Origin: an uncultured Planctomycetia bacterium
GTDB taxonomy: Bacteria > Planctomycetota > MHYJ01 > WSZJ01
Direction of reading: 5' to 3'
NCBI GenBank assembly: GCA_964590435.1
Contig: CAZPWT010000045.1
Span: forward strand, 31,027-95,026
Length of the DNA stretch: 64,000 bases
In this document: positions 17,108 through 35,934 of the stretch, in pieces
How positions within the stretch are numbered: position 1 is the first letter of the stretch
Layout: every line of letters begins with the position of its first letter
Made by a program: the position numbers and the translations under genes
The notes under the pieces: generated by a model
Database searches by the model: none
The model's input: the letters and a program-made list of their open reading frames with translations, nothing else
Told to the model about the DNA's origin: nothing

Positions 17108-17154
17108 GCGGCGCCGGACGTGGCGTGAATCCGCCGTTCTCCCTCCCATTCCGT

Positions 17155-17202
17155 ATTTTCTATTTCATATTACATATTTCATATTACATATTTCATATTC
17201 AT
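17155..17202. repeat. AT-rich heptamer array (alternating ATTTCAT/ATTACAT)
   Basis: ATTTTCT ATTTCAT ATTACAT ATTTCAT ATTACAT ATTTCAT ATTCAT. Confidence 0.85.
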
Positions 17203-17250
17203 CTTTTCCCCAATCCGCGCCCCCCGACCCGCCTACAATACGCCCGTCGC

Positions 17251-18633
17251 GTGCGTCCCCCCCGCGCTGCAAACTCCCGCCCTTCCCGCCGGCTCCCCGT
17301 GTCGGCGTGCCGCGGGCCCGAGGACGCGCTGGTGGCGGCTTGGTACGGGCTGCGCTTTGCGCGGGAGGCGCTGCGGACCGTGGAGGGCGAGGAGGTGCGC
17401 ATCGGGTCCCCCGGGGTGCGCGAGGCGGGGGCGGGACCGGACTTCCGCGGGGCGCGGCTGTGGATCGGCGGACGCGAGGTGCGGGGCGCGGTGGAGTTGC
17501 ACTGCGACACGGCGGAGTGGGGGCGGCATGGGCACGACGGCGACCCGTGCTATGACGGCGTCGTGCTTCATGTCTCGCTCGTCTCTTCGTGCGAGGTGGT
17601 GACGTCCTCCGGCCGGCGGGTGCCGCGGCTCGTCGTCGCGCCGACCGGCGGGGAGCCCGCGGCGCGCCGTCGCGTCACCGTCGTCGCCGCGGAGGCGGGG
17701 ATCGGGCCGTGCCACGCGTCGCCGCCCGCCCGGACCGTGCGCGAGCTCGAACGCCTCGGCCGCGAACGCCTCGAGCGCCGCGCCGCGCGGTTCGCGGCGT
17801 GGGCCCGCGAGGACGGCGAGGAGGAGGCCGTCTGGCGCGCCCTCGCCGAGGCGATGGGCTACGGCGCCAACTACGAGGCGTTCCGCACGCTCGCCCTCCA
17901 CGTCCCGTGGCGGTCCTTCGCCGATGCCGCCCCGGGCCCCGACCGCGCCGCCGCCATCGAGGCCGCGCTCCTCCATGCCTCCGGCCTGTGGCCCGCGGCG
18001 GCCCACGATGCCCCCTCGCGCGCCCGCCTCCTCTCCCTCTTCGCCACGCTCCCCGCAGCGTCCCCGGAGCCGTTCCTCCCCTCCGCCTGGCGCGCCGCCG
18101 TCCGCCCGCCGGACCACCCGCCGCGGCGGTTCGCGGCGCTCGCGGCCCTCGGCGCCGGCGCCCCCTCGCTCTCCGCACTCCTCGACCGCTGGACCCTCGA
18201 CCCTGAACGCGCCTCGGCTTCCCTCCTGGTCCCGCCCCTCCCCTACTGGGACCTCCGCCCCGCCTGGGGACCGCCCGCATTCCGCCGGCCGATCGCCCTC
18301 CTCGGCCCCGGCCGCGCCCGCGTCGCCGCCGCCTCCGCTGTCCTCCCCCTCCTCCTCGCCCTCCGACCCGCCGCACGCGACGCCGCCCTCCGCGCCTTCG
18401 CCGCCCTCGGCCCCCTCCCCGAGGACCACGTCACCCGCTTCGTCCGCTTCCGCGTCTTCGGCGCCCCCCGCGGCCGCCGCCTCGGCGCCGCCGCCCAGCA
18501 GGGGCTCCATCACCTCTACCGCGCCGGCTGCGCCCTCGGTAAACCCGGCTGCCCCCGGTGCCCGCTCAACCCGGACGCCGCCGAGATATCGCGCCCCTTT
18601 CCGGACTCCCCCGCTACAATTCCCGGCCTATGA
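17251..18633 (+). CDS. DUF2851 family protein (start uncertain: GTG 17251 or 17299)
   Basis: GPDFRGA, G.VELH...EW..HGHD.DP.YD.VVLHV, AMGYGAN..AF, QQGLHHLY, terminal CxxxxxCxxC. Confidence 0.85.
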   Translation: MRPPRAANSRPSRRLPVSACRGPEDALVAAWYGLRFAREALRTVEGEEVRIGSPGVREAGAGPDFRGARLWIGGREVRGAVELHCDTAEWGRHGHDGDPCYDGVVLHVSLVSSCEVVTSSGRRVPRLVVAPTGGEPAARRRVTVVAAEAGIGPCHASPPARTVRELERLGRERLERRAARFAAWAREDGEEEAVWRALAEAMGYGANYEAFRTLALHVPWRSFADAAPGPDRAAAIEAALLHASGLWPAAAHDAPSRARLLSLFATLPAASPEPFLPSAWRAAVRPPDHPPRRFAALAALGAGAPSLSALLDRWTLDPERASASLLVPPLPYWDLRPAWGPPAFRRPIALLGPGRARVAAASAVLPLLLALRPAARDAALRAFAALGPLPEDHVTRFVRFRVFGAPRGRRLGAAAQQGLHHLYRAGCALGKPGCPRCPLNPDAAEISRPFPDSPATIPGL

Positions 18634-20504: not shown

Positions 20505-21457
20505 CGCCGGCGCGGGCGTCGGAGCTCGCGGGGAAGGCGAGGCTGCTCCAGGAGACGATCGGCCGCGCGATCGCGGGGAAGCCCATGGCCATCGAACTTC
20601 TGGTGGTCGGGCTTGTGGCGCGCGGGCACGTCCTGATCGAGGACGTCCCGGGCGTCGGGAAGACGGCGCTCGCCAAGGCGCTGGCGCGCTGCGTCGGCTG
20701 CGAGTTCCGCCGCATCCAGTTCACGCCGGACCTCCTGCCCAGCGACATCACCGGCCTCTCGATGTACGACCCCAGCACCAAGGACTTCCAGTTCCGCCCC
20801 GGCCCCATCTTTACCCAGATCCTCCTCGCCGACGAAATCAACCGCACCACCCCGCGCACCCAGGCCGCCCTCCTCGAGGCGATGAACGACTTCCAGGTCA
20901 CCGCCGACGGCCGCACCTACGCCTTGCCGAAACCGTTCATGGTCGTCGCCACCCAGAACCCCCTCGAGTTCGCCGGCACCTACCCGCTCCCCGAGGCCCA
21001 GATGGACCGCTTCATGCTCCGCATCCGTATGGGCTACCCGTCCGTCGAGCAGGAGCGCGAGATGCTCGCGACGCACCGCCAGGGCGAGCCGGTCGATTCG
21101 CTCCCCGTGGTGATCCAGGCGAAGGAAATGCTCGAGCTCTCCGCGGTGGCCTCCTCCGTGAAATTCGACCCGGAGCTCGCCGCCTACCTCGTCGCCATCG
21201 TCGACCGCACCCGCCGCGAACCGCACTTCGCCGCCGGCGTCTCCCCGCGCGGCAGCCTCGCCCTCTACCGCGCCGCCCAGTCCCGGGCCCTCGTCCGCGG
21301 CCGCGACTACGTCATCCCCGACGACGTGAAGGACCTCGTCATCCCCGTCCTCGCCCACCGCATCGTGGAGCGAGGGCCGCGCAGCTCGAGCGAGCGCGGA
21401 AGCGCCATTCGCGTGCTGCAGAACATTCTCGCGGAGCTGCCGGTACCGGCCGGGTAA
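20474..21457 (+). CDS. MoxR family AAA+ ATPase (start uncertain: GTG 20474 or ATG 20585)
   Basis: GHVLIEDVPGVGKT, RIQFTPDLLPSD, LADEINR, ATQNP, YPLPEAQMDRF, GVSPRG motifs. Confidence 0.93.
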   Translation: MAGIHQVAQIAPARASELAGKARLLQETIGRAIAGKPMAIELLVVGLVARGHVLIEDVPGVGKTALAKALARCVGCEFRRIQFTPDLLPSDITGLSMYDPSTKDFQFRPGPIFTQILLADEINRTTPRTQAALLEAMNDFQVTADGRTYALPKPFMVVATQNPLEFAGTYPLPEAQMDRFMLRIRMGYPSVEQEREMLATHRQGEPVDSLPVVIQAKEMLELSAVASSVKFDPELAAYLVAIVDRTRREPHFAAGVSPRGSLALYRAAQSRALVRGRDYVIPDDVKDLVIPVLAHRIVERGPRSSSERGSAIRVLQNILAELPVPAG

Positions 21458-21462
21458 GAACG

Positions 21463-21595
21463 AGCGGCCAGTGGCCAGTGGCCAGCGGCCAGCGGCCAGC
21501 GGCCAGTGGCCAGCGGCCAGCGGCCAGCGGCCAGTGGCCAGCGGCCAGCGGCCAGCGGCCAGTGGCCAGTGGCCAGCGGCCAGCGGCCAGCGGCC
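21463..21595 (+). repeat. Tandem array of 19 AG(C/T)GGCC heptamers
   Basis: Read directly; variant order C T T C C C T C C C T C C C T T C C C. Confidence 0.97.
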
Positions 21596-21679
21596 AGTAA
21601 AGACAACGCGCGGACTACACTCTCGTCTGAGGAATTCCATTTTTCGGAAATAGAGTCACTTCGCGATTAGGCTTCAGTC

Positions 21680-21740
21680 TCGCCGCTCGCCGCTCGCCGC
21701 TCGCCGCTGGCCACTCGCCCGCTGGCCACTCGCCCGCTCG
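21680..21740 (-). repeat. Degenerate inverted copy of the heptamer array
   Basis: TCGCCGC x4, TGGCCAC, TCGCCCGC, TGGCCAC, TCGCCCGC; reverse complement resembles (GCGGCGA/GTGGCCA)n. Confidence 0.85.
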
Positions 21741-21786
21741 AACCCTCGCCCCGCGCCAACGTTCATTCTCTACAATGCCCTCGCGC

Positions 21787-22935
21787 ATGCGCCGCCTCCG
21801 CCTCGCCTGGTCCCGCCGCCCCCGCCTCACTCGAAACGGGCTCTACGTCCTCACGCTCACCGTCATGGCCGCGCAGGTCGCGTTCGTCACGGGGAACAAC
21901 CTGTTCTGGTTCCTGTTCTCCTCCGGGCTCGCCCTTCTCCTCTCCAACGCCTGGCTCGGATGGCGCGGTTTGCGGAAACTCTCACTGCGGCGTTCCCTTC
22001 CGCAGACGGCGTATGCGTGGGAAGCGTTCGCGGGGTCGTACCAGGTGACGAACGCGGGGCGGCTGCCGGCGTTCTACGTGATTTTCGAGGACCCGCCGGA
22101 GACGCCTCGGCCGGCGGGCGAGGGGGAAGCGCGCCCGATCTTCGCGTTCGCGGCGTCGATCGCGCCGCGCGCCACCGCCACGGTCCCGTTCTGGACGCGG
22201 CTCGTGCAGCGCGGCTGGAACCGCTTCAACCGCGTGCGCATCTCGTCGGATTTCCCGTTCGGGTTCTTCCGCATTTCGCGCGACATCGAGATCAAGGACG
22301 AGATCCTCGTCTACCCGCGCGTCGGGCGCGTGCTGTCGTCGCTGCCGCTCGAGCGCGCCGCCGACGGGCAGCTCGTCGCCGTCCGCCGTGCGCAGCCGGG
22401 CGAGGACGACTTTGCCGGCTTGCACGAATGGCGCCCCGGGGACAACCCCAAGGCGATCCACTGGCCGTCCTGGGGACGCTTCCATGACGACCGCCTCCTC
22501 GTCCGCGAATTCGAGCGGACCCGCGTGCCGCGGGCGTGCCTGCTGATCGACCTCGAGTCGAAATCCGACCGGCGCTTCGAGCAGGTCGTGTCGTTCACCG
22601 CCGCGAACCTGCTCGATCTTCACAAGAACGGGGTGGCGACCGCGCTCTGGGCCGGGACGGGCGAGACGCTGAGCGCCGCCGTCCCCGAGGCGCTCCTGAC
22701 CGAGCTGGCCACGCTCAAGCGCGACGAGCCGGCCGCGACTCCGTCGAAGCACCTGGAAGAAGCGATCGCGGCGGCGGTGGCGGTCGGGGACCTGCCGGTG
22801 GTGGTCGGGGACGGGACGCGGAAGCGGCACCGCGGCGCTGAGTGGGCGAAGGACGTGGTGATGGTGGACGTGGCGGCGGCGGATTTCCGCGGGCGGTACC
22901 AGGTGCGGCCGGAGAAGGGGGCGGGGGATGCTTGA
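21787..22935 (+). CDS. DUF58 domain protein with N-terminal TM helices
   Basis: LTRNG, RGW.RF....ISSDFPFGF, LVYPR, F.GLHEWRPGD..KAIHW, LLVREFE motifs; start moved to ATG 21787 behind a TACAAT box. Confidence 0.88.
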   Translation: MRRLRLAWSRRPRLTRNGLYVLTLTVMAAQVAFVTGNNLFWFLFSSGLALLLSNAWLGWRGLRKLSLRRSLPQTAYAWEAFAGSYQVTNAGRLPAFYVIFEDPPETPRPAGEGEARPIFAFAASIAPRATATVPFWTRLVQRGWNRFNRVRISSDFPFGFFRISRDIEIKDEILVYPRVGRVLSSLPLERAADGQLVAVRRAQPGEDDFAGLHEWRPGDNPKAIHWPSWGRFHDDRLLVREFERTRVPRACLLIDLESKSDRRFEQVVSFTAANLLDLHKNGVATALWAGTGETLSAAVPEALLTELATLKRDEPAATPSKHLEEAIAAAVAVGDLPVVVGDGTRKRHRGAEWAKDVVMVDVAAADFRGRYQVRPEKGAGDA

Positions 22936-25042
22936 TGTGCTCCTGGTCGCGCTGTGGGGAGTCGGGGGGCTGATCGGGGCCCTGCCGGAGCGCCGTTTCG
23001 AGTGGGCGCTGGGACCGATCGTCGTCGCGGCGTGGGGGATCACGGCGGGAAAGATCGGGATCCGGCAGTTGCTGGTCGGGCGGAGCCCCGTGGGATACGC
23101 GCTGCTGGCTGGCGTCTGGGTGGCGGTCTCGGGGATGGCCCTGGCGCTGGGAACCCCGCGCGAAGCGGTGCTGCCGGCCTGCGCGGCGGCCGTCGGCGTG
23201 CTGTTCCTGCTCGAGCGCCGCTCGGCGCTCCAGGCGCACGCCGTCATCGCCGCGTCGTTCGTGGCGGCGGTCGTCGGCGCGACCCGCGACACCTCGGCGA
23301 AGATGCTGCCGCTGTTCGTCCCGTTCCTGGTGCTGATCGTGCTCTCGCTCGCTCTGACGCACCAGCAGTGGGTCCTGCAGCGCCTGCGCCGCGCCGCCCA
23401 CGAAGGCTACCTGCTCGCCGCCCAGGTCCCGGGCTACGCCGGCACCCGTACCGGCCTCGCCTCCACCGTCTCCCTCGTCGCGCTCACCACGACGTTCGCC
23501 GCGCTCGTCCTCTACCTCGTCGTCCCCCACTTCCGCTGGAAAAACCCCGAGGACGCCCGGGGCGGGAAGGGCTCCGGCTCGCAGGGCGCCAGCGGACTGT
23601 CGGACCGGCTGTCGCTTCACGCGATGCACGACCTGAAGATCGATCACCGCATCGCGCTGAAGCTCAAGATGGCCCGCGACGGGAAGAACTTCCGGCCCGC
23701 GCTTCCCATGCGGCTGCGCGGCGCCGTCGTCGACAGTTCCAACGGCACGGAGTGGTGGTCCACGGCGTCGCGCCGGACGCGCCGCGACGAGAACGACGGC
23801 AAGCGCGACGGCCGGGTGACGCTCATTGCGGATCCCGCCGATCCCGTCCTCCAGGAATGCGAGATCGAGTCGACCGGCGACACCACCATCGTGGCCCTTC
23901 CCGAAATCGCGGAAGTCGAGGCGGCGACGGCGGACGTGGACGACCACGGGGTGGTGCGGCTGCCGGCGCTGGGAAGCGGGGGGCGTGCGCACTACCGGGT
24001 GGTGTCGGACACGGCGGGGACGGACCCGCGGACGTTCGAGGCGCGGCCGCGGAGCCCGCATCCGCGGTACCTGATGCTGCCGCACGGGAAGGACCCGGAA
24101 ATCCTGTCGCTGGCGACGGGCATCACGGCGGGGGCGAACGACGCCGCGCGCAAGGCGGCGCTGATCGAGAACTGGCTGCAGTCGAACTTCGATTACTCGA
24201 CGGACTTCGACCCTTCGAGCGAATCCGACCCGGTGCGGGCGCTGCTGTTCACGGAGAAGCGCGGCTACTGCGTGCATTTCGCGGCGACGATGGCGGTGAT
24301 GCTGCGGTGCCTGGACATCCCGTGCCGGGTCGCGCAGGGGCTGTTCGGCGGCGAGTGGTCGGATCGCGACGAGCTCGCGATGTTCCGGTTCTCGGATGCG
24401 CACGCCTGGGTCGAGGTCTGGCTCGGCCCGCGCGCCGGGTGGATGCCGTTCGACCCGACGCCGCGGCTGCAGGGCGGCAACGAGGAGAACCCCGAGGACT
24501 TCGCAAACACCGGCCCGGACGCGCGGCGCCCGGACCCGGCGCGGCGGGACCCGGACCGGCCGTCCTCCTCCTTCTCCACCGAGCCCCTCACGACGCTCAG
24601 CCTCGAGCGGCAGGCCCAGTGGCTCCGGGCCGCGAAAAAGCTCTTCACTGACGCGTGGGACTCGAAGCTCGGGAAGGGCGTCTTCTTCTTCGCGTTCTTC
24701 TCGTTCTCGCTGCTGCTGACCTGGAGCCTGCTGCCGCGGCACGAGCGCAACCGGCTCCGCGCGGCCCTGACCGGCGCCCCGGGCGAGTCCACCGCGTTCT
24801 GGGACGAGTTCGTCACGCTGTCCGCGCGCGCCGGTTTCCGCCGCGGCCCGGGCGAGACGCCGTTTGAGTTCGCGCGCCGCGTCGAGCGCACCTACCCCGG
24901 CGCCGGCCGCGTGGCACTCGCCCTCTACGCCGTCCGCTTCGGCGGCCATGACGCCCGGGAGAAAACGGCCGAGGCGCGCCCGGCGCTGGACGCGATCCGG
25001 AAGCAGCAGGCGGGCAAGGCGGCCCCGCCGCCGGCACCCTGA
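22928..25042 (+). CDS. Membrane transglutaminase-like protein (TgpA/DUF3488-TGc-DUF4129 architecture)
   Basis: Multi-TM N-terminus; RGYCVHFA (Cys), DAHAWVEV (His), FDPTP (Asp); GETPFEFA..V C-terminal motif. Confidence 0.9.
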   Translation: MLDVLLVALWGVGGLIGALPERRFEWALGPIVVAAWGITAGKIGIRQLLVGRSPVGYALLAGVWVAVSGMALALGTPREAVLPACAAAVGVLFLLERRSALQAHAVIAASFVAAVVGATRDTSAKMLPLFVPFLVLIVLSLALTHQQWVLQRLRRAAHEGYLLAAQVPGYAGTRTGLASTVSLVALTTTFAALVLYLVVPHFRWKNPEDARGGKGSGSQGASGLSDRLSLHAMHDLKIDHRIALKLKMARDGKNFRPALPMRLRGAVVDSSNGTEWWSTASRRTRRDENDGKRDGRVTLIADPADPVLQECEIESTGDTTIVALPEIAEVEAATADVDDHGVVRLPALGSGGRAHYRVVSDTAGTDPRTFEARPRSPHPRYLMLPHGKDPEILSLATGITAGANDAARKAALIENWLQSNFDYSTDFDPSSESDPVRALLFTEKRGYCVHFAATMAVMLRCLDIPCRVAQGLFGGEWSDRDELAMFRFSDAHAWVEVWLGPRAGWMPFDPTPRLQGGNEENPEDFANTGPDARRPDPARRDPDRPSSSFSTEPLTTLSLERQAQWLRAAKKLFTDAWDSKLGKGVFFFAFFSFSLLLTWSLLPRHERNRLRAALTGAPGESTAFWDEFVTLSARAGFRRGPGETPFEFARRVERTYPGAGRVALALYAVRFGGHDAREKTAEARPALDAIRKQQAGKAAPPPAP

Positions 25043-26202: not shown

Positions 26203-26640
26203 GGTCGTCGCCGTTTTTCCCGTCCCGGTATCGGGCGAGGCGGGTTGCGGGCCGCAGCGGAGGGGGTGCGGCGGCGCGCGCCGAAGCCGGGCCAGGAAAT
26301 GGCCACTCCGAACTCAACCCCTCTCGGCCCGGCGCAGGGGCGCGCCGCCGCCCCCCGGAGCGAAGGCCCACAACCCGCCTCGCCCGAAACCGGGACCTCC
26401 GCCTCTGCCGTGCAGAGCTGGTACTGAACCTCTTATTTCAGGGTGGGAACGGCCCTCTGGCTTCGTGGATCCCCGCAGGGATCGGGTCAGCAGGAGGCAC
26501 TGGTGTTCCCAATGAAGTGTTCGTGGTTCGCGCCATGTTCTCTAACACGCACAGTGCAGGGGCCCCGGCGTCGGGCGCCGGGAGGTCGGGTTCCTTAACC
26601 GGGACGGCACAAGTCTACCAGAGTCGCCGTGCCGTCCATC

Positions 26641-29600
26641 CTATGTCGCAACCGCCCCCTTCAGCGCTCCCAGCATCGCCGCCATCCGCCCGGCATCCGG
26701 CAACGCATACGGCCGGAACTTCTCCACCGTCCCTTCCTCCTCCACGAACAGCAGCCCGCGGTACAGCCCCAGCTTCGCCGCCGCCGGCGTGTCGATCAGC
26801 TCCGACGAATCCGACCCGCTCATCTGGAACAGGATCCGCATCCCGAATTCGCGCAGCGTCTTCTGCGAGAACGTGCGCTTCAGGTTTCCCAGCGAGTCGC
26901 ACCACGTCGCCGTGAACACCCCGCGCGCCGGCCCCTCCGTCAGCACGTTCACCAGGCACTTGTCCGTCGACGGCTTGTCCCCTTCCCCGCCCCCGAGGTC
27001 AAACTCGTCGCTCTGGCGGAGCTTTCTGAAGCGCTGGAGGTCGTGGATGAAGAGGTAGACGGGGAGCGAGCCGGAGCCGCCGCTTTCGTCGCGCGACTTG
27101 ACGAGGGCGTCGAGGTCCTCCATGAGCTGGGGGATCTTCGCGTAGTCGACGATTTCGACTTCGTGGGGAAGTGCGGCAGCGAGGTCCGTGAGGCGACGGG
27201 CCTCTGCGACCTCTGGGGGCGTGCCGTCGACGAGGATGAAGCGTGCGGATTTCGGCGCGTGGAAGGAGGCGAGGCTGAGGAGGATGGACTGGACGACGGC
27301 GGTGGCGGACTCGCGCTGCTGCCCGACGACGAGGAGATTGGCGCCGGCCTGGCGCTGGAAGCGGACCTCGGTGGGGCCCTTGATGGCGTTGGCCTCGCCG
27401 ACCCAGGCGCGGGGGACGCCGTCGCCGGACCAGGGTTTCGCGAGCGACTTGCGGAGGAGGACGTTCTGGCCGATGTCGGCGGGAAGGTTGCCCTCGAACA
27501 CCGTGGTCGCTTCGCGCGGCTCCCAGCCTTCCTGGTCGGCGTGGGCGCGGAGCCGGGCGAGGTACTTGTCCTCGATGGCGTCGGACATCCAGACGACCTG
27601 GAACGGGGAGTTCCCCTCGATCATGCCGGACATGTCGTTGTAGATCGCCTCGCCGGGGCGCGACAGGAGGCGAGCGGCGGGGTTGTCGTCGCCGAGGATG
27701 AGGAGCGAGTCGGCCTCGTTGCACTGGAGGGCGATGCGGATCCCCATCTGGCCGAGGGTCGTCTTGGCGAGCGTGTACGAGCCGCCGAGCGTCTGCGAAC
27801 CGAGGATCACGTGCACCCCGAACGCGCGGCCCTGGCGGACGATGCGGTCGAGGAGCAGCGCGGCCTCCTGCGCCGTCGCGTCCTCCTCGGTGAAGAACTC
27901 CTGGAATTCGTCGATGAGCAGCAGCGTGCGCGGCAGGTAGTCGCCCTTCCCGTGCTTGCGGTAGCCGGCGAAGTCCTGCACGCCCGCGGCGCGGTAGAGG
28001 TCGGCGCGCTCGCCGAGCTCGCGGTCGATGCGGCGCAGGACGGACAGGCCGAATTCGCGGTCCGACTCGATCGCGATGACGCGGGCGTGGGGGAGCCGGT
28101 GGTTGGCGAAGCGCTTGAACTCGACGCCCTTCTTGAAGTCGATGAGGTACAGCTCGAGTTCGCGGGGGCCGTACCAGAGGGCGGAGTTGGTGATCATGAC
28201 GTGGAACAGCGTGGACTTACCGGAGCCGGTCTTGCCGGCGATGAGCGCGTGCTGCGACGTGCCGCGGCCGAGCTCGAGGCACTGGAGCTTGTCGGCGCCG
28301 GAGCGGCCGAGCGGGATATGGACGCCGGTTTCGGAGCTGAGGCTCGCCCATTTGCCCTCGGGGGGCGCGACGGTCTCGAACGGGACCTCGACGCGCCCTG
28401 CGCCGGCGCACTGCCGGCCGATGGACTGGAGAAGGGGCGTGAGGACGGCCGGGTCCGCGGGAGGCTCGGGGACGGCCACGGCGCGCGGGAGGATTTCCTC
28501 GTCGACCGTGACGGCGTCGTTGGCGATGGAGAGCACGAGTCCGTTGGTGCGGAAGCGCGGCGGCGTGAACGCCGGGGGGACCTTCTGGCCGCGTTCGCCG
28601 AAGATGAGCGTGTGGACGCCGCAGCGGGCGCCGCTGGCCACGATCCCCGCGAGCCGGTCCATCGCGACGTCGCTGAACCCGCGCGGGAAGTCGGCGATCG
28701 TGAGGAAGTGGTACGCCTCGGCCATGATGCCGACCTCGCGGTTGTAGTCCCCGATGGTCGCGTAGCGGTTGCGCAGGTACTTCTGGATGATCTTCTCGAT
28801 GTGCTCGGTCAATTCCGCGAGCTTCTTCTCGATGTGGACGGTCTCGGTCCAGATGCGGCCGCCGACGATCGACTCGTCGTCGTCCGCGAGGTGCATGAGG
28901 GCGGAGAAGCTCTGGCCGAGCCCGACGGGGTCGACGAACAGGAACTTGGCCTTCGCGGGCGGGAACGCAGCGAGGATCCGGAGCACGGCGTCCGAGACCG
29001 TCTGCGCGGCGCGGGGGCGGTTTTTCGCGTCGGCGCTCACGAGGAGGTTCCCGCGCCCGGGGAACGCCAATGAGAGCGGCACGGCGATCCGCCCATTGTC
29101 CGGCAGTGAGAACGGCTCGCCGCTTCCCCGCGCACCGGCCAGCGGCCCGAAATCCACCATCGCGTCGCCGAGGTAGGCCGCCTCGGGGAATTCTTTCGTC
29201 ATGCGGTAGTCGTGCCACGACGGGTCCGTCCACGGCGGGATCTGCCGGCGCCCCTGCGCCCTCGCCGCGGCCATGGACGAGGTGAAGTCGCCGACCTCAC
29301 GGGTCCAGGCGGCCGCGAGCTTCTCCCGGGCCTCGGCCCCCCTGGCCAGCGCCTCCTGCCCGCCCTGCGCCTGCGCCGCGCGGTGGACCTCGAGTTCCTT
29401 CCGGAAGCGTTCCTCGAGCGCGCGGGCCTCGGCGTCGAGGCGGGCGTCGAGGGCGGACTCGCGCTGGTTGTTCCGGCGGCGGACGCGTTCCAGCAGCGCG
29501 AGGTGCTTCTTCTTCAGCGACTCGATCCGCGGCGCCGCGGCTTTCTTCGCCTCCTCGAGCCCCGTGGCCAGCGTCTCGTCCAGGTCCGCGACCGCGCCGA

Positions 29601-30549
29601 TCTTGTCCTCGAGCCCCTTCTCGCGCCCCGCCGCGATCCGCCGGCCGACCTCCTCCTCCTGGCGCAGGAGCCCGGCGGTCATTTCGTCGGCGCGGCCCCG
29701 CAGGGCGTTCACGAACTCGCGCGCCTTGGCCCGCAGGGCGACCATCACCGCGAGCCCGATCGCCAGCGCGCCGGCGAACACCAGCGGCACGACGACGATC
29801 GCGCGCTCCTCGAGCTCGGGGCGCGCGAAGTGGATCGCCGCGAACGCGCCGCCGTGCAGCGCGGCGAGCAGGAAGAACACCGCCGGGTACGAGAACGCCT
29901 TCACCATCAGCAGCCACAGCGCGCGGCTGCGGTACTGGAGGAACCGCGTGTCCTCGAGCAGCCCCTGCCGGACTTCGGCGGCGATTTTCTCGGGCGGGAC
30001 GTCCTGGAAATGCCCCGCTCCGACGATCCCTTCCTCGGGATTGACCCGCACATCGCGCGCAAAGGACTCGACCTTCGCGCGCCACTCCTCGGACTCCCGG
30101 CGCACGGCGACGATCCCGGCGAGCAGGCCGTCCAGTTGCCGCGTCAGCCGGGCCTGCGCGTCGTGCATCGCGTGCAGCGATTTGTCCCGGGCCGCCGCCT
30201 GCTCCTTCTTCAGCCGCGCGATCGTGCCGCCCAGGCGGTCGTGCTCCCGCTTCGTCGCCGACTCCAGCGCCCGGTCCACCTGCACCAGCCGCCGCGCCGA
30301 GCGGTCCTCCCCTTTCCGCCGCGCTTCCGCGTGCCGCGCCTTCGTCTCCTTCCGCAGCCCGTCGAGCTCGGCGTTCAGCCGCGCCGTCGCCTTCGCGAAC
30401 GTGTCGTCCACCTCGCGCTTCCGCGCGTTCGCCCCCCGGTCCGACTCGTCGCGCGCCTCCACCGTCTCCTTCAGCCGCTTCTCGAACTCCGCGACGCGCG
30501 CCCGGACCGCCTCCATCCCGAATGCCCCCGTTCCCTCGCTCAACTGCAT
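26641..30549 (-). CDS. FtsK/SpoIIIE-domain ATPase, EssC/EccC-like (start reassigned to ATG 30549, SD GAGGAAGGA)
   Basis: Coiled-coil N-terminus, two TMs, intact GKTGSGKST and LLLIDEFQ module, GRAFGVHVILGSQ, RIALQC, RPGEAIYN; degenerate flanking ATPase folds. Confidence 0.9.
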   Translation of the reverse strand: MQLSEGTGAFGMEAVRARVAEFEKRLKETVEARDESDRGANARKREVDDTFAKATARLNAELDGLRKETKARHAEARRKGEDRSARRLVQVDRALESATKREHDRLGGTIARLKKEQAAARDKSLHAMHDAQARLTRQLDGLLAGIVAVRRESEEWRAKVESFARDVRVNPEEGIVGAGHFQDVPPEKIAAEVRQGLLEDTRFLQYRSRALWLLMVKAFSYPAVFFLLAALHGGAFAAIHFARPELEERAIVVVPLVFAGALAIGLAVMVALRAKAREFVNALRGRADEMTAGLLRQEEEVGRRIAAGREKGLEDKIGAVADLDETLATGLEEAKKAAAPRIESLKKKHLALLERVRRRNNQRESALDARLDAEARALEERFRKELEVHRAAQAQGGQEALARGAEAREKLAAAWTREVGDFTSSMAAARAQGRRQIPPWTDPSWHDYRMTKEFPEAAYLGDAMVDFGPLAGARGSGEPFSLPDNGRIAVPLSLAFPGRGNLLVSADAKNRPRAAQTVSDAVLRILAAFPPAKAKFLFVDPVGLGQSFSALMHLADDDESIVGGRIWTETVHIEKKLAELTEHIEKIIQKYLRNRYATIGDYNREVGIMAEAYHFLTIADFPRGFSDVAMDRLAGIVASGARCGVHTLIFGERGQKVPPAFTPPRFRTNGLVLSIANDAVTVDEEILPRAVAVPEPPADPAVLTPLLQSIGRQCAGAGRVEVPFETVAPPEGKWASLSSETGVHIPLGRSGADKLQCLELGRGTSQHALIAGKTGSGKSTLFHVMITNSALWYGPRELELYLIDFKKGVEFKRFANHRLPHARVIAIESDREFGLSVLRRIDRELGERADLYRAAGVQDFAGYRKHGKGDYLPRTLLLIDEFQEFFTEEDATAQEAALLLDRIVRQGRAFGVHVILGSQTLGGSYTLAKTTLGQMGIRIALQCNEADSLLILGDDNPAARLLSRPGEAIYNDMSGMIEGNSPFQVVWMSDAIEDKYLARLRAHADQEGWEPREATTVFEGNLPADIGQNVLLRKSLAKPWSGDGVPRAWVGEANAIKGPTEVRFQRQAGANLLVVGQQRESATAVVQSILLSLASFHAPKSARFILVDGTPPEVAEARRLTDLAAALPHEVEIVDYAKIPQLMEDLDALVKSRDESGGSGSLPVYLFIHDLQRFRKLRQSDEFDLGGGEGDKPSTDKCLVNVLTEGPARGVFTATWCDSLGNLKRTFSQKTLREFGMRILFQMSGSDSSELIDTPAAAKLGLYRGLLFVEEEGTVEKFRPYALPDAGRMAAMLGALKGAVAT

Positions 30550-30752
30550 TCCTTCCTCGCCCGGCGCAGGATTTCCTCGATGCGCTGGATCGCCGATGTG
30601 ACCGATTTCATCGCGGGCAGGAGACATTCCAGGTGGTCCCTCTCGAAGTCCGCCCGCGCCGAGTCGTTCCACACGATCTGCGTCTGGTCCCAGTGCGCCT
30701 GCAGGTCCTTCAGCGCCTTCGCCATGATCGCGTCGTTGCCGCCGCCTTCCAT
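30540..30752 (-). CDS. Small WXG100-like helical protein, 70 aa
   Basis: MEGGGNDAIMAKALKDLQAHWDQTQIVWNDSARADFERDHLECLL...; TGATG overlap with the upstream gene; central WND turn; seen only as the tail of a longer tracked ORF. Confidence 0.75.
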   Translation of the reverse strand: MEGGGNDAIMAKALKDLQAHWDQTQIVWNDSARADFERDHLECLLPAMKSVTSAIQRIEEILRRARKECS

Positions 30753-31252
30753 CAGACTTCCCCCGGCTTGTGGGTCCCCAGGTACTCCTCCAGCTTCTCC
30801 ACCATCAGGTCCAGCCGCGCCAGCGCCTTCGGCGTCAGCGCGTCCATCATCACCGAAAACGACTTCAGCGACGCCAGCGACTTCTCCACCTCCGCCGTGA
30901 ACAGCACCGCCCAGCGCCGCGTCGCCTCCAGCTTCGCCTCCGTCTCCTCCTTGCGGCGCTTCTCCCGGTCCAGCACCTTCTTCGCGTCGATCGTCGCCTG
31001 CGAAGCCTTCCCCGCCGCCGTGAACTTCACACGGTTGTACTCGTTCTGCGCCAGGTTCACCGCGTTCTCGCACTTCCGCAGCTCCTGCTTCAACTGCGTC
31101 TGCCGCTCCCCCTTGAGCCACTCCGACGTCCGCTTGATCGCCGCGTCCACCCCCATCAGCGTGTTCCGGCAGGTGTCGTCGAAGGCGACGAAGCGCCCCC
31201 GGAAGTGCCGGATGATGTCCGGCGAGTCGATGCGGGCGGATCCCTGGGACAT
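30752..31252 (-). CDS. Coiled-coil hypothetical protein of the WXG100/FtsK module
   Basis: 166 aa, helical heptads, closely spaced with both neighbours. Confidence 0.8.
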   Translation of the reverse strand: MSQGSARIDSPDIIRHFRGRFVAFDDTCRNTLMGVDAAIKRTSEWLKGERQTQLKQELRKCENAVNLAQNEYNRVKFTAAGKASQATIDAKKVLDREKRRKEETEAKLEATRRWAVLFTAEVEKSLASLKSFSVMMDALTPKALARLDLMVEKLEEYLGTHKPGEV

Positions 31253-31258
31253 GGTCGG

Positions 31259-31531
31259 CTACCGCTGGTCCAGGTACTCCTTGATGCGCTCCGCCTTGCG
31301 CATCAGGAACGGGACGTGCTTGTCGGCGGCGTCCGCGAACTTCGCCAGCATCTTGATCATCTGCTCGAACAGCTCCGCAAACTTCGCCTGCTCCTGGTCC
31401 TGCCAGGTCTCGGCGAGCTTTATGAAGCGGTGGTGCATGGAGGAGATTTCGCCCTTGAGGTCGTTGTTGAACCGCTTGAGGTCGGCGGCGAAGCGGCGGA
31501 GTTCCTCGGGATCGACGACGGCTCTGGCCAT
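31259..31531 (-). CDS. WXG100-family (type VII secretion target-like) protein
   Basis: 90 aa; VDPEELRRFA N-terminus, central TWQD, helix-turn-helix pattern. Confidence 0.85.
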   Translation of the reverse strand: MARAVVDPEELRRFAADLKRFNNDLKGEISSMHHRFIKLAETWQDQEQAKFAELFEQMIKMLAKFADAADKHVPFLMRKAERIKEYLDQR

Positions 31532-31585
31532 GGTCGCGGGGCTCCATCGGGTGGGAAAACCGCCGCCGCGGGGTTGCGGCGACGA

Positions 31586-31614
31586 CGTCTATGCTGACTC
31601 CGGCGCTGGGTCAA
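31586..31614 (-). promoter_or_regulatory. Putative promoter of the WXG100/FtsK module
   Basis: TTGACC-17 nt-TAGACG, with GGAG SD before ATG 31531. Confidence 0.5.
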
Positions 31615-31636
31615 AACAAGGGGGAAGTACGGCGGT

Positions 31637-32773
31637 CTAGCGCGCGCTTCCGGCGCTCCACAGGTAGTAGAAACCGTCGCGCCGCGCGGTGAGCCGTTCG
31701 AGGGAAGCGGCGAGGGCGGTCTCGGGGGAGGGCGCCCTGGACTCGCCGCGGAGGAGGTCGGCGAAGGTCGGCGGGCGCTGCCACTGGATGACCTTCGCGT
31801 CGGTGACGCCCGCGAGCTTCTTGGCCTCCGTGAGCGCGTCCTCGAATTGCCCGAGGTCGTCGACGAGGCCGTTCGATTTCGCCTGCCCCGCGGAGTAGAT
31901 CCGGCCGTCGGCGATCTCGCGGACCTTCTTCGCGTCCATCTTGCGGCCCTTGGCGACGACGTCGACGAAGCGTTCGTACATCTCCATGAGCATCGCCTGG
32001 AGCATCGCGCGTTCCTCGTCGGTCATCGGGCGCGCCATCGAGCCGATGTCCTTGTGGTCGCCGCTCTTGATGACCTCTTCCTTCACGCCGACCTTCTCGT
32101 AGAGACCCTGGAGGTTCATGAAGGACATGATGACGCCGATGGAGCCGGTGATGGTGGTGTGGCTGGCGATGATGCGGTCGCAGGGGGCGGAGACGTAGTA
32201 GCCGCCGGAGGCCGCGACGTTGCGCATGAAGGACACGAACTTTAGGTTCGGGCGCTCGGCCTTGAGCTTCATGATCTCGTGGTGGATCCGGTCGCAGTCG
32301 GTGATGCCGCCGCCGGGGGAATCGACGTCGAGGATGACGGCGACAATGTCGTTGTCGGCCTTCACTCGGCGCAGGTCCTTGATGACCTTGTCGACCATGT
32401 CGACGCTGGGGCCGAACATCGAGGTCTGGCCGGAAGCGATGACGCCGTGGACGGGGATGACCGCGATCTTGCTGTTCGTGCCGGAGCTGCTTGCGGGCTC
32501 GACCTGCGTCTCGATCGCGCCGTCCGCCTGGAGCCCTCCGGCGCCGCCGAGCGCGCCGAGCAGGAGGAAGAACATGACCACGTTCAGGCCGAGGCTGCCG
32601 AGCAGCGTCAGCGTCATGAGGCACGACCCGAGGTTGAACCCGCTGCGCCGCGGGGCCGCGGCCGGGGGGGGCGGCGGCCAGCTTCCCATCGGTGAGGACG
32701 GGACCGAGCCGGGCGGGATCGGGCCGCCGGGGGACGGTGAACCGTAGGGGACCGAGCCGGGCTCGTCGCTCAT
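31637..32773 (-). CDS. sppA: Signal peptide peptidase SppA (S49), start ATG 32773
   Basis: [39 protein letters not shown] motifs; Pro-rich N-terminus then TM. Confidence 0.92.
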
Positions 32774-33228
32774 TTGCGTCCTCCCTTGCCCTTCTTCGCC
32801 GCCGCGCCGGCGGCCTTCGCGCGCCTCCGGGCGACCTCCTCGCGGATGTAGTTCACGATCTCCTCGCCCGTCGTCCCGGGGCCGAACAGCTTGCCAATCC
32901 CGAGCTTCTTGAGCGCCGCGTCGTCCTCGGGCGGGATGATCCCGCCGCCCGTCAGCAGCACGCCGCCCAGCCCCTTCTCCTTCATCAGTTTCCACACCCG
33001 CGGAAACAGCGTCATGTGCGCCCCGGAGAGGATCGAGAGGCCAAGCGCCTCCACGTCCTCCTGCAACGCCGCCTCGACGACCTGCTCGGGCGACTGGTGG
33101 AGGCCGGTGTAGATCACCTCCATCCCCGCGTCCCGCAGGACGCAGGCGATCACCTTGGCCCCCCGGTCGTGCCCGTCGAGGCCGACCTTGGCGACCAGCA
33201 CGCGGATCTTCCTCTCGGGCGCGGCCAC
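32770..33228 (-). CDS. Cobalamin-binding small subunit of acyl-CoA mutase (IcmB-like); start probably GTG 33228
   Basis: [10 protein letters not shown] (DxHxxG), [24 protein letters not shown] motifs. Confidence 0.93.
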
Positions 33229-33253
33229 GGCGGCCCCGCTCCCCTTCTCACGG

Positions 33254-34942
33254 CTACCAGTAGATGGGCGGCTCACGGTATTCCCCGTAAACGGTCCTCA
33301 ACACGTCGCACATCTCCCCCAGGGTCACATGGTTCTTCGCGGCCTCGAGGAAGCGCGGCATCAGGTTGTCGGTGCCGGCCGCCGCCTCGCGGATCGCGTT
33401 CAGGCTGCGCTTCACCGCCGCCATGTCGCGCTTCTTCTTGAACGCCACGACGTCCTTCACCTGCCGCCGTTCCGCGGCCATCGGGACCTTCAGCAGGTCC
33501 ATCGGCTCCTCGTCGGAGTCCACGAACTGGTTCACGCCGACGACGATGTTCTCGACGCGGTCGACCTTGAGCTGGAACTCGTAGGCGGCCCGGGCAATTT
33601 CGCGCTGGAAGAACCCCTTCTCGATCCCGGCCTCGCACCCCGACAGGATGCCGCCGGTGCCGAGCTCCTCGATGCGCTTGAAATACGCCTCGGCCTCGCG
33701 CTCCATCTGGTCGGTGAGCCACTCGACGTAGTACGAGCCGGCGAGCGGGTCCACCGTGTCGGCGACGCCGGTCTCGTGCGCGATGATCTGCTGCGTGCGG
33801 AGGGCGATCTTGACGGCCTTCTCCGTGGGAAGCGCAAGCGCCTCGTCCATCGAGTTCGTGTGGAGCGACTGCGTCCCGCCCAGCACCGCCGCCATCGCCT
33901 CGTACGCCGTCCGCACGATGTTGTTCTCGGGCTGCTGCGCCGTCAGCGAGCACCCCGCGGTCTGGGTGTGGAAGCGCATCTTCCAGGAGGCCGGGTCCTT
34001 GGCGCCGTAGACGTTCTTCATGCGCTTGGCCCAGATGCGGCGCGCGGCGCGGAACTTGGCGATCTCCTCGAAGAAGTTCATGTGGGAGTTGAAGAAGAAC
34101 GAGAGGCGCGGGGCGAAGGAGTCGACGTCGAGCCCGGCCTTGATGCCGGCCTCGACGTAGGCGAAGCCGTCGCCGAGGGTGAAGGCGAGTTCCTGGACGG
34201 CGGTGGAGCCGGCCTCGCGGATGTGGTAGCCGCTGATGGAGATCGGGTTCCACTTGGGCGTGTGCTTCGACGACCACGCGAACATGTCGGTGATGATGCG
34301 CATCGCCGGCTTGACGGGGAAAATCCACTCCTTCTGGGCGATGTACTCCTTGAGGATGTCGGTCTGGGTGGTGCCGCGCAGTTCGCCCAGGTCGGCGCCA
34401 CGCTTCTGGGCGACGGCGACGTAGAAGGCGAAGACGATCGCCGCGGGAGCGTTGATGGTCATCGAGGTCGAGACCTTCGACTGGTCGATCCCGTCGAAGA
34501 GGACTTCCATGTCGCGCAGGCAGCAGATCGCGACGCCCTCGCGGCCGACTTCGCCGAGCGCGCGCGGCCCGTCGCTGTCGACGCCCATGAGCGTCGGCAT
34601 GTCGAACGCCACGCTGAGGCCGGTCTGGCCCTTGGAGAGCAGGAACTTGTAGCGCTTGTTCGTGTCGTGCGCCGTCCCGAACCCCGCGAACTGCCGCATC
34701 GTCCAGAGGCGGCCGCGGTACATGTTGGGCTGGACGCCGCGCGTGTAGGGGAACTCGCCGGGCTTGCCGATGTCCTTCGCGAGGTCGCGGGACTTCGCCG
34801 ACTCGGGGCCATAGAAGATCTCCAGCGGCACGCCGGTCTCCGTCGTCCACGCCTTCTTCGGCGGCGCGGGCTTCGACCCGCGCGGCTCGGCGGATTTCGC
34901 GGACGCTTCGCCCTTCGACGCCGACGGCTTGTAGTCCTGCAT
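33254..34942 (-). CDS. icmA: Acyl-CoA mutase large subunit, isobutyryl-CoA mutase type (start ATG 34942)
   Basis: [49 protein letters not shown] motifs. Confidence 0.8.
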
Positions 34943-34956
34943 CGGTCCCCCTCCGG

Positions 34957-35934
34957 TTATTTCGCGACTCTCGCCGGGCGCCGCGGGATGCCGCGCTCCG
35001 GCTTCTGCACCAGCCGATCCAGCACTTCTTCCGCCGCGTCCCCGGGCGTCAGCCGGCCCGCCAGGACGTCCTCGACGCGCGTCTCCAGCCACGCCGCCGC
35101 CGCCGTGTCGTTCGCCAGCCGGCGCGACAGCGCTTCCTCGACGAGCCTTCCGATCCTGAAGCGAAGGCGCGCGGCGCGATGGTCGCGCAGGGTGCCCTCG
35201 CGTTCCATTTTTTCGGTATGGGCCTCGATCGCGGCCGCGGCGGACTCGATGCCTTTGCCCGTCCCGGCGGAGGTCTGCACGAGGGCGGGAGGCCTGCGGC
35301 TGGTGGAGAGCTCGAAACTGGAGCGGATCTGGGTTTCGAGCGCGTCGGCCCCCGGCCGGTCCGCCTTGTTGATCACGATGACGTCCGCGATTTCCATGAG
35401 GCCCGACTTCATCGCCTGCACGCCGTCGCCGGACTCCGGCGACAGGATCACGACCGTCGTGTCGGCGACGCGGACGATCTCGATCTCGCTCTGCCCGACG
35501 CCCACGGTCTCGACGAGGATGACGTCCTTCCCCGAAGCGTCGAGCACGTCGCACGCATCGTAGGTCGCGCGCGCCAGGCCGCCGAGCGCGCCGCGGGTCG
35601 CCATCGAGCGGATGAAAACGCCGGGGTCCATCCCGACGGAGTTCATCCGGATGCGGTCGCCGAGCAGCGCGCCGCCGGTGAAAGGGCTGGAAGGGTCGAC
35701 CGCGACGATGCCGACGGTCTTGTTCTTCGTGCGCCAGTGCCGGGCAAGCTCGCTCACCAGCGTCGACTTCCCCACCCCGGGCGGCCCCGTGAACCCGATC
35801 CGCCGAGCCTTCCCGACCCTCGGGTACAGCTCCTCCAGCAGCGCGCGGGCCTCCGGATCCCCGTTTTCAACGCAGGTGATCGCGCGGGACAGGGCGCGAC
35901 GGTCGCCGGAAAGGACGAGGGCGGCGAGGGACAT
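34957..35934 (-). CDS. meaB: MeaB/ArgK GTPase chaperone of B12 mutases
   Basis: GPPGVGKST, AVDPSSPFTGGALLGDRIRM, ETVGVGQSE, NKAD motifs. Confidence 0.95.
   Translation of the reverse strand: MSLAALVLSGDRRALSRAITCVENGDPEARALLEELYPRVGKARRIGFTGPPGVGKSTLVSELARHWRTKNKTVGIVAVDPSSPFTGGALLGDRIRMNSVGMDPGVFIRSMATRGALGGLARATYDACDVLDASGKDVILVETVGVGQSEIEIVRVADTTVVILSPESGDGVQAMKSGLMEIADVIVINKADRPGADALETQIRSSFELSTSRRPPALVQTSAGTGKGIESAAAAIEAHTEKMEREGTLRDHRAARLRFRIGRLVEEALSRRLANDTAAAAWLETRVEDVLAGRLTPGDAAEEVLDRLVQKPERGIPRRPARVAK

Follow-up and report, generated by a model that had tools for sequence, protein, structure and literature searches.

Can the two parts that type VII secretion systems (T7SSs) have at their core, a WXG100 protein and an EccC/EssC-like ATPase, stand on their own as a module in a Gram-negative-type diderm? 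The question is raised by a 64,000-nucleotide stretch of DNA from an uncultured Planctomycetia bacterium (hereafter the window), in which four head-to-tail genes, called g1, g2, g3 and g4 here, occupy positions 26641-31531 of the minus strand. The source is a metagenome-assembled genome (MAG) of the Planctomycetota, g1 being 100% identical to the protein of 'uncultured Planctomycetia' MFD10097.bin.2.14, and the host therefore belongs to the Planctomycetes-Verrucomicrobia-Chlamydiae (PVC) lineage, in agreement with a preliminary description of the locus that had supposed a diderm. T7SSs are treated as a system of Actinomycetota and Bacillota, whereas the four-gene module studied here is kept, with the same two core parts, across Gram-negative-type diderms of the PVC group. 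The reading that we favour, and to which we would give an even chance, is that the cassette is a stand-alone, membrane-anchored operon of a WXG100 protein and a three-domain EssC-like ATPase, and a minimal type VII-like exporter of a helical bundle to the periplasm. It is a better-characterised case of a kind known from comparative genomics only and, judged by sequence, would be the simplest candidate for a type VII-like machine available, widespread as it is in the PVC group.

The four genes and their proteins

The open reading frames (ORFs), together with the sequence read directly, place the four genes in one operon-like array, with g1 about 0.7 kb upstream of g4. Six nucleotides separate the g1 stop from the g2 start, g2 and g3 overlap by one nucleotide (TGATG), and between g3 and g4 the overlap is eight nucleotides (ATGCAGTTGA), an arrangement typical of a translationally coupled operon. 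The tight spacing of four genes had been remarked on in the preliminary description and is confirmed, but the end coordinate given there, 31614, belongs to a spurious ORF opening with TTG, and the real 5' end of the array is the g1 ATG at 31531.

The first of the four is a WXG100 protein. g1 scores 39.9 bits against the Pfam WXG100 model (PF06013), for which the gathering score is 27.3, and 31.6 bits against the stricter TIGR03930, below the cut-off of 44.85. Its motif, W43-Q-D45, replaces the usual W-x-G and is that of the HP0062 subtype: the closest solved relative is HP0062 of Helicobacter pylori (3fx7/2gts, E 1e-9), while the Gram-positive EsxA is matched only at E 2e-3. HP0062 is a helical hairpin that dimerises to a four-helix bundle; its W-x-G is replaced by W-R-D, and an FtsK/SpoIIIE protein is encoded nearby. 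Across 16 diverse members of the g1 family, HP0062 included, the residues W43, D45, K50, F51, Y86 and L87 are invariant. No signal peptide, hydrophobic segment or transmembrane (TM) segment was found in g1, g2 or g3, and any export of these three proteins would therefore be Sec-independent.

For g3, a protein of similar kind, four independent lines, weak to moderate in strength, suggest a WXG100-like hairpin. g3 matches TIGR03930 at E 0.011; in a profile-to-profile alignment (hhalign) the g3 family matches the g1 family (E 3e-4) and the W-x-D motifs of the two are aligned; the hidden Markov model (HMM) of the g3 family picks up independent WXG100 proteins, from Caballeronia at 26.6 bits and from Helicobacter at 14.4 bits; and a single-sequence AlphaFold2 prediction, with a predicted local distance difference test score (pLDDT) of 74, is a helix-turn-helix with W28-N-D30 at the turn. 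A fold search with the g3 model gave no match, the protein being too short.

The remaining small protein, g2, is modelled by AlphaFold2 (13 sequences, pLDDT 90.3) as an antiparallel two-helix hairpin with helices at residues 11-78 and 85-160 (68 and 76 residues) and a predicted length of about 100 Å. It belongs to no Pfam, NCBIfam or PADLOC family and has no significant sequence match in the PDB; a Foldseek search with the model returned only generic coiled-coil hairpins, all at E > 0.03, and showed no link to EspB, PE/PPE or LXG proteins. With 1900 representatives (clusters at 50% identity) reached by its profile at E <= 1e-3, g2 nevertheless stands for a large protein family that is without a Pfam model. 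The best 150 of these representatives contain no recognisable toxin domain, and 37 of them end in an Imm33-like domain. PVC g2 proteins come as a bare hairpin, as a hairpin with a disordered tail, or as a hairpin with the Imm33-like domain; the last form is seen at Phycisphaerae-type loci (L003, 6728-7744; L022, 9285-10349; L065, 8082-9215), where g2 is 338-377 amino acids long and its end matches PF24719 at up to 54 bits. In the list of Zhang et al. 2012 (PMC3482391), Imm33 figures among the immunity families that go with HNH-fold toxins. One may speculate that the Phycisphaerae fusion is a remnant left after the toxin domain was lost from a toxin-immunity pair.

Natural fusions join the small proteins to each other. 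In P0153 (262 amino acids) g1 is fused to g2 through a GGGSG-type linker, and in P0157 (257 amino acids) g2 is fused to g3; by Rosetta-stone logic, the two together suggest that g1, g2 and g3 form one physical complex. Each of P0153 and P0157 could be a real fusion or an artefact of assembly or frameshift.

The ATPase, g4, scores 94 bits with the Pfam model FtsK_SpoIIIE; of the NCBIfam models, EccCa, EccCb and EssC come out best (84-96 bits). The FtsK equivalog NF007615, by comparison, gives 18 bits against a cut-off of 1566, and the match covers residues 766-865 only, inside the central domain; past the P-loop core, the C-terminal gamma DNA-recognition region included, no match of g4 to FtsK was found. 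Among solved structures, EccC (4nh0) scores 102 bits, EccC5 89 and YukB 75, against 32 for FtsK motor domains; g4 is nearer to the T7SS ATPases than to any other solved FtsK-family protein. A PADLOC defence system was also considered and set aside, save as a rival of low weight: g1, g2 and g3 gave no hits, and the hits of g4 to SspH, mad8 and HerA are confined to the FtsK/HerA core at residues 743-951.

Column conservation in g4 was read from 50 PVC orthologues. The protein has a single GxxGxGKS (at 772) and a single hhhhDE (876-881), and G772, G775, G777, K778, S779, D880 and E881 of the central domain are invariant in all 50, while the flanking domains are without both K[ST] and DE; the Walker motifs predict that the central domain is the only catalytically competent one. 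The first P-loop-like domain found no hit in a sequence search of the PDB, and it may be assigned to the HerA/FtsK type by analogy with the descriptions of Zhang et al. 2012 (PMC3482391) and Bell et al. 2024. The third weakly matches D1, D2 and D3 of EccC in their P-loop regions (E 0.011). At the other end of the protein, residues 1-205 form a putative coiled coil, which would match the N-terminal coiled coil of more than 200 residues in relatives, and are followed by a TM hairpin whose flanks carry net positive charge and whose short acidic loop is predicted to be periplasmic (N-in, C-in). A hydrophobic segment at about 186-295 occurs in 49 of 49 full-length PVC orthologues of g4, and at 17-45 in the N-terminally cut ORF of L024. 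No comparable hydrophobic segment was found in the ATPase relatives of Caballeronia, Micromonospora, Rhodococcus and Helicobacter.

The gene contents proposed in the preliminary description stand up well on the whole: HMM searches find its WXG100 gene in g1 and its FtsK gene in g4, its coiled-coil gene is g2, modelled as a two-helix hairpin, and its WXG-like gene is g3, with profile evidence and a W-N-D at the turn of the model. The T7SS core parts that it recognised are likewise present, in the form of a self-contained module of a WXG100 protein and an EccC/EssC-like ATPase accompanied by two helical-hairpin proteins.

Distribution and known relatives

g1 has 362 relatives in a clustered protein database and at least 557 stretches with relatives in a collection of one genome per species, and the phage collection gave no g1 relative. 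The best 80 of these at least 557 stretches were scanned with profiles of all four proteins, and 58 of them, each with at least 5.2 kb downstream of g1, were testable. By label, the 80 come from Planctomycetota (including Phycisphaerae, Isosphaeraceae and Gemmataceae), Verrucomicrobiota (six) and Lentisphaerota (two); of the remainder, four are contigs named 'uncultured bacterium' and one is a short contig from a MAG with the label Betaproteobacteria. All four genes follow in the order g1-g2-g3-g4 at 49 of the 58 testable loci. Four loci have g1-g2-g3 without an adjacent ATPase (L032, L033, L047, L068), three have g1 alone (L034, L037, L038), L072 has only g3 besides g1, and one has a split ATPase. 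The genomes with a lone g1 include the complete genome of Tepidisphaera and a MAG labelled Phycisphaera mikurensis. Of complete PVC genomes, CP070772.1 has the cassette and CP051526.1 a g1 on its own. At L076 and L081 the ATPase lies in two ORFs, for which a frameshift or a pseudogene could be the explanation. No further gene family travels with the cassette across the 49 loci beyond synteny at the level of lineages, with a maximum of 17 loci.

Median identity to the proteins of the window is 59% for g1, 36% for g4, 29% for g3 and 25% for g2, and the divergences of the four genes co-vary (r 0.78-0.95). In a neighbour-joining tree of g4, Verrucomicrobiota and Lentisphaerota form a clade apart from the Planctomycetota clades. 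The co-varying divergence, the g4 tree and the stable, non-island contexts are in keeping with mainly vertical descent, with the caveat that MAG labels are unreliable. The cassette is apparently kept in at least several hundred PVC species of the Planctomycetota, Verrucomicrobiota and Lentisphaerota. Two labels are doubtful: a 1.5-kb contig of the Betaproteobacteria-labelled MAG (L035) carries a PVC-type g1, and a MAG labelled Akkermansia muciniphila (L067) carries the full cassette. Both labels probably stem from errors of binning or labelling and not from the true hosts.

The cassette had been thought undescribed, which proved too strong, as the class was recorded by Zhang et al. 2012 (PMC3482391, Table 1 footnote 6): a solo WXG protein with an ATPase of three HerA/FtsK domains, the middle one active, in planctomycetes and verrucomicrobia. 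The relatives HP0062 and HP0066 were discussed by Uchiyama 2016, and a kindred operon was found by Bell et al. 2024 inside type III-A CoCoNuT/TerY-P islands; stand-alone copies of the operon in other genomes are, as Bell et al. 2024 cite them, due to Anantharaman et al. 2012, to whom Uchiyama 2016 refers as well. In the operon of Bell et al. 2024, the ATPase is an EssC homologue that is active in its central domain alone, has an N-terminal coiled coil exceeding 200 residues and lacks TM helices. It is accompanied by two WXG100 proteins, of which one lacks WxG, by a fusion of a coiled coil to a nuclease and by a DNA-mimic-like protein; for such TM-less forms a different mechanism was judged likely. 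We found no experimental work on any member of the class in the literature.

The cassette shares with the solo-WXG operon of Zhang et al. 2012 a solo WXG100 gene adjoining an EssC/YueA-like ATPase and the occurrence in planctomycetes and verrucomicrobia, and its g3 and g2 correspond to two further parts described for the class: a second WXG100-like protein without WxG, and a coiled-coil protein whose gene stands between those for the WXG protein and the ATPase. That operon has been called a minimal or mobile T7SS; for the PVC form, however, the labels 'mobile' and 'secretion' are only putative, and the literature, which amounts to one footnote and passing remarks, holds no anatomy of it. New here are the TM hairpin and its conservation, the partners g2 and g3, the lack of a toxin domain in g2, the wide spread within the PVC group, the stable non-island context, the Imm33-like g2 and the fusions.

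Outside the PVC group, the same gene order (WXG100, coiled-coil protein, small helical protein, ATPase) is found on the Caballeronia plasmid pSBC2-5 (L087), in a CoCoNuT type III-A/TerY-P setting. The full order there is VWA, WXG100, proteins of 436, 113 and 76 amino acids, FtsK (927 amino acids), CARF, VWA, PP2C and kinase. The WXG100 protein scores 85 bits against the PVC g1 profile and the ATPase 367 bits against that of g4; the latter has an N-terminal coiled coil, as g4 putatively does, and, like g4, a central domain that alone is active. The differences are that the ATPase is without a TM segment and that the operon is plasmid-borne, between VWA genes with PP2C, kinase and CARF. In CoCoNuTs the protein at the g2 position has a restriction-endonuclease-like D-ExK domain and is followed by a DNA-mimic-like protein (Bell et al. 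2024); the 436-residue protein at that position in Caballeronia had no Pfam hit in our scan.

In Helicobacter, the HP0062-HP0066 cluster resembles the cassette in that HP0062, the best solved relative of g1, is clustered with an FtsK/SpoIIIE ATPase in a diderm. A Helicobacter plasmid (L088) has a paralogous array that keeps the gene order, with WXG100 (89 amino acids), a coiled coil with a WHH nuclease of the HNH superfamily (340), a SUKH immunity protein, a 77-residue protein and the ATPase (823). Its WXG100 protein scores 54 bits against the g1 profile and its ATPase 242 bits against the g4 profile; it differs in that the g2 position is taken by the coiled coil with WHH nuclease, followed by the SUKH immunity protein, and in that the ATPase is shorter and without the PVC N-terminal coil and TM hairpin.

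The closest non-PVC ATPase, at 588 bits to the g4 profile, is encoded on a Rhodococcus plasmid in the order ATPase with an N-terminal TerD domain, g2-like protein (314 amino acids; 24.6 bits to the g2 profile), g3-like protein and g1-like protein. In this plasmid, of Rhodococcus sp. AH-ZY2 (L089, 4348-8316), the TerD domain stands where the PVC protein has its coiled coil and TM hairpin, and the array lies beside TerD and DUF475 genes; the fusion is a direct physical link of the ATPase family to tellurite-resistance-type stress genes. A ParB-like assignment of the C-terminus of the g2-like protein was dropped, as it was not borne out by Pfam. On the chromosome of Micromonospora costi (L006, 6462-11323) are found an 86-residue, weakly WXG100-like protein, a 425-residue protein and a soluble FtsK-like ATPase of 886 residues (29% identical to g4). 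A separate protein of 221 residues at the same locus combines a coiled coil at its N-terminus with TM helices at its C-terminus, and looks like a split version of the N-terminus of g4.

The PVC form is set apart from these relatives, as far as its sequence tells, in three ways: by its membrane anchor, its toxin-less g2 and its housekeeping neighbourhood.

A proposed translocation and its alternatives

With canonical T7SSs (T7SSa or ESX, T7SSb or Ess/Yuk, and T7SSc-j), the cassette shares a WXG100 protein and, probably, a membrane-bound EccC/EssC-family ATPase, as well as the pattern of small WXG100-like helical partners accompanying larger helical substrates. The variants a to j have, in a census, been found in Actinomycetota and Bacillota only and have ATPases with four NTPase domains; the cassette has three P-loop domains, one of them active, long coiled coils flanking the TM hairpin and W-x-D for W-x-G, and it is hosted by Gram-negative-type diderms of the PVC group. 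EccB, EccD, EccE, MycP, EssA, EssB, EsaA, a YukD-like ubiquitin-fold protein and FHA are all missing from the examined flanking genes, as is the TsxB of variants c-j. The cassette also resembles the pre-secretion complexes of T7SSb, in which an LXG toxin is joined by Lap1 and Lap2: the gene of a longer helical protein has those of two small WXG100-like hairpins on either side, and the toxin-carrying relatives of g2 are built like LXG proteins, helical at the N-terminus, with the toxin at the C-terminus and an immunity gene after it. On the other hand, g2 has no detectable sequence or fold match to LXG, the PVC g2 is without a toxin domain, and complex formation in the cassette is inferred solely from gene fusions.

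What we infer for the PVC cassette comprises complex formation, the docking site, the oligomeric state, the pore, the transport direction and transport itself. g1, a hairpin and probably a dimer like HP0062, would assemble with g3 and g2 in the cytoplasm as an elongated helical bundle. The bundle would dock on g4, most likely by the invariant C-terminal tail of g1 binding to the degenerate C-terminal P-loop domain, which would parallel the docking of EsxB on D3 of EccC. g4, held in the cytoplasmic membrane by its TM hairpin, would oligomerise, as an FtsK-family hexamer with 12 TM helices, and ATP hydrolysis in the single active central domain would drive the bundle over the inner membrane into the periplasm. 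The WHH nuclease and SUKH protein of Helicobacter and the restriction-endonuclease-like domain of CoCoNuTs suggest the architecture of an exported polymorphic toxin, in which the g2-type hairpin would stand where such toxins have their trafficking domain; as the PVC g2 has no toxin domain, the complex exported in that group would probably be a structural or envelope-acting factor and not an antibacterial toxin.

Periplasmic export, proposed in the preliminary description as well, is plausible for the cassette proteins, and several points weigh against it. Secretion has been shown for no member of the class. g4 falls far under the curated cut-offs for EccC and EssC (96 vs 509 and 84 vs 778 bits) and has one active domain, against several nucleotide-binding domains in those proteins. 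The membrane partners that build the channel in T7SSa and T7SSb were not found among the examined flanking genes, and no outer-membrane component is associated with the cassette; the 12 TM helices alone make only a putative protein-conducting pore. Neither YxxxD/E nor the pattern of Poulsen 2014 (hydrophobic-xxx-D/E-xx-h-xxx-hydrophobic) is evident by eye in the tail of g1. The defence-island relatives have no TM segments, and the ancestral activity of the ATPase may for that reason have been cytoplasmic; the Imm33-like domain on the Phycisphaerae g2, finally, would be an odd export cargo.

If export is true, the irreducible type VII machine would consist of the ATPase alone, as motor and channel, and the cassette would offer a tractable minimal model for substrate recognition by EccC/EssC and a Sec-independent route to the periplasm in an ecologically important superphylum. 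A bolder version of the same idea, which we put forward tentatively and think rather doubtful as a whole, is an ancient, largely vertical, toxin-less type VII-like translocon of Planctomycetota, Verrucomicrobiota and Lentisphaerota, in which one EssC-like protein (a hexamer with 12 TM helices and one active ring) serves as motor and channel exporting g1, g2 and g3, and in which the Phycisphaerae fusions of g2 to an Imm33-like domain are relics of toxin-immunity pairs. No type VII-like machine known would then be simpler, and it would be the first in classical diderms to be functional.

A machine that is tethered to the membrane but does not secrete would explain some of the same observations: in a stress or conflict response, the g1/g2/g3 bundle would be reshaped or taken apart by the ATPase, or would serve it as a sensor or adaptor, the whole being a domesticated remnant of toxin or defence-island versions. 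The nearest non-PVC relatives do lie in TerY-P/CoCoNuT-type islands (with VWA, PP2C, kinase and CARF) or are fused to TerD, without TM segments, and the opinion of Bell et al. 2024 on the TM-less forms points the same way. So do the loss of any toxin domain from the PVC g2, the immunity-like domain in 37 of the 150 best g2 representatives, and the PADLOC hits to SspH and mad8, though these come through the generic FtsK domain only. Yet PVC cassettes lie in stable housekeeping surroundings (methylmalonyl-CoA mutase, RNase III) and not in defence islands, and they have no nuclease, kinase or VWA partner; a TM hairpin present in every full-length PVC orthologue is hard to square with a purely cytoplasmic job, and g1 is very strongly constrained, with a median identity far above the 25-36% of g2-g4. 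We consider such a machine unlikely. Were export absent all the same, the WXG100-EssC pair would have a second, non-secretory job, with a bearing on the CoCoNuT/TerY-P modules. PVC bacteria have unusual endomembranes, and with a membrane-anchored ATPase at hand, one could picture the g2 hairpin polymerising on the inner membrane in the manner of PspA, Vipp1 or ESCRT-III and the ATPase taking the polymer apart. Vipp1/PspA and ESCRT-III (Shrub) hairpins are indeed among the Foldseek matches of g2, with TM-scores of 0.44-0.54, but these matches are non-significant (E 0.25 or worse) and common to the hairpins of chemoreceptors, HlyD and EmrA; g2 is without helices 3-5 of ESCRT-III, and neither an FtsK-family ATPase nor WXG100 partners are known from any ESCRT-III or PspA system, which leaves membrane remodelling quite improbable.

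The family to which g4 belongs also invites the thought of DNA, the ATPase pumping a chromosome or plasmid in the manner of FtsK/TraB or standing in for the translocase of cell division, and nucleases and a DNA-mimic-like protein are associated with its relatives. The low FtsK scores given above speak against this, as do the catalytically dead state of two of the three g4 domains and the constant linkage of g4 to WXG100 proteins. Verrucomicrobiota and Lentisphaerota have FtsZ, whereas Planctomycetota are FtsZ-less; the cassette occurs in both, and is as well conserved in Verrucomicrobiota and Lentisphaerota as in Planctomycetota, so that the division role in FtsZ-less cells raised in the preliminary description is disfavoured. 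The DNA translocation raised there is disfavoured too, and we rate a DNA pump as very improbable. It is hardly credible, finally, that the four genes are no more than an outlying part of a complete canonical T7SS, with its EccB/D/E/MycP or EssA/B/EsaA genes at another place in the genome. Only 64 kb of that genome is visible, and the separation of g1-g2-g3 from the ATPase at the four loci named above indicates that parts can be separated. However, no further family travels with the cassette at its 49 loci in three phyla, T7SSa-j have been described from Actinomycetota and Bacillota only, and the ATPase, with three P-loop domains, one of them active, and no FHA, is unlike that of any of them. 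Export by a minimal type VII-like module remains the reading that we prefer.

Coordinates, leader and neighbouring genes

Table 1. Features of the cassette in the window; residue numbers refer to g4
Feature	Position	Strand	Description
g1	31259-31531	-	90 amino acids
g2	30752-31252	-	166 amino acids
g3	30540-30752	-	70 amino acids
g4	26641-30549	-	1302 amino acids; start ATG at 30549 inside the end of g3
g4 residues 1-205	29935..30549	-	N-terminal, cytoplasmic, charged and helix-prone, from composition and long runs free of proline and glycine
g4 residues ~206-276	29722..29934	-	two hydrophobic helices paired as a TM hairpin; hydropathy (Kyte-Doolittle windows) as high as 2.7
g4 residues 277-430	29260..29721	-	putative second coiled-coil 'stalk', from composition and a 55-residue run free of proline and glycine (341-395)
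g4 residues ~470-720	28390..29142	-	first P-loop-like domain, degenerate: no Walker A, invariant D540-P-x-G-L-G
g4 residues 740-990	27580..28332	-	central ATPase domain; Walker A G772-K-T-G-S-G-K-S, Walker B L-L-L-I-D880-E881
g4 residues 1050-1302	26644..27402	-	third P-loop-like domain, degenerate: G-Q-x-[ED]-[ED] for G-K-[ST], no Walker B D-E
Leader	31532..31636	-	105 nucleotides, from the stop of the S49 peptidase gene to the g1 ATG; sequence read

The leader (Table 1) contains a GC-rich hairpin, then TTTT, then a Shine-Dalgarno-like GGAG motif 11 nucleotides ahead of the g1 ATG. A scan for promoters of the sigma-70 type, the consensus of which does not cover planctomycete promoters, gave no match, and the one promoter supposed in the preliminary description stays putative; in Rfam no family reached its gathering score anywhere in the window, the leader included. 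The G+C content of the cassette is the same as that of the flanking DNA, and no second copy of g1-g4 turned up when the 64 kb were searched with profiles. Beyond the other end of the array, a gap of 438 nucleotides (26203-26640) separates the convergent g4 and HGSNAT genes; directly past the g4 stop lies a perfect 9-bp inverted repeat (GGACGGCAC...GTGCCGTCC), without a T-run and without an Rfam match.

The flanking genes were annotated from precomputed Pfam results for about 7-8 kb on each side of the cassette at the syntenic loci L001 and L002, and in the window from Pfam scans of selected ORFs within 17125-42687, several of which gave no family hit. On the g1 side lie an S49 peptidase, the B12-binding and other subunits of methylmalonyl-CoA mutase, MeaB and an FG-GAP protein, and on the g4 side HGSNAT, a TgpA transglutaminase, DUF1570 and DUF2851. 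Among these genes, that is, at L001, L002 and the selected ORFs of the window, no EccB/D/E, MycP, EssA/B, EsaA, YukD, FHA, LXG or immunity gene was found, and the statement in the preliminary description that no EssB, EsaA, EccB, EccD, MycP, FHA, LXG or immunity gene is nearby holds within that range.

On the plus strand, positions 17125-25042 hold an operon-like run of DUF2851, a zinc-ribbon protein with DUF1570/peptidase-MA, two ORFs without a family and a TgpA-type transglutaminase membrane protein. At L001, the place matching the two family-less ORFs is taken by a MoxR AAA ATPase; the window ORF at 20278-21600, picked as the expected MoxR gene, had no Pfam hit and is probably in the wrong frame. 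The run is a BatA/MoxR-style cluster unrelated to the cassette. On the minus strand, at 32770-35934, separate genes encode the catalytic and the B12-binding subunit of methylmalonyl-CoA mutase, together with the G-protein chaperone MeaB. This group is placed immediately upstream of the S49 peptidase and the cassette, in an order also kept at L001 and L002.

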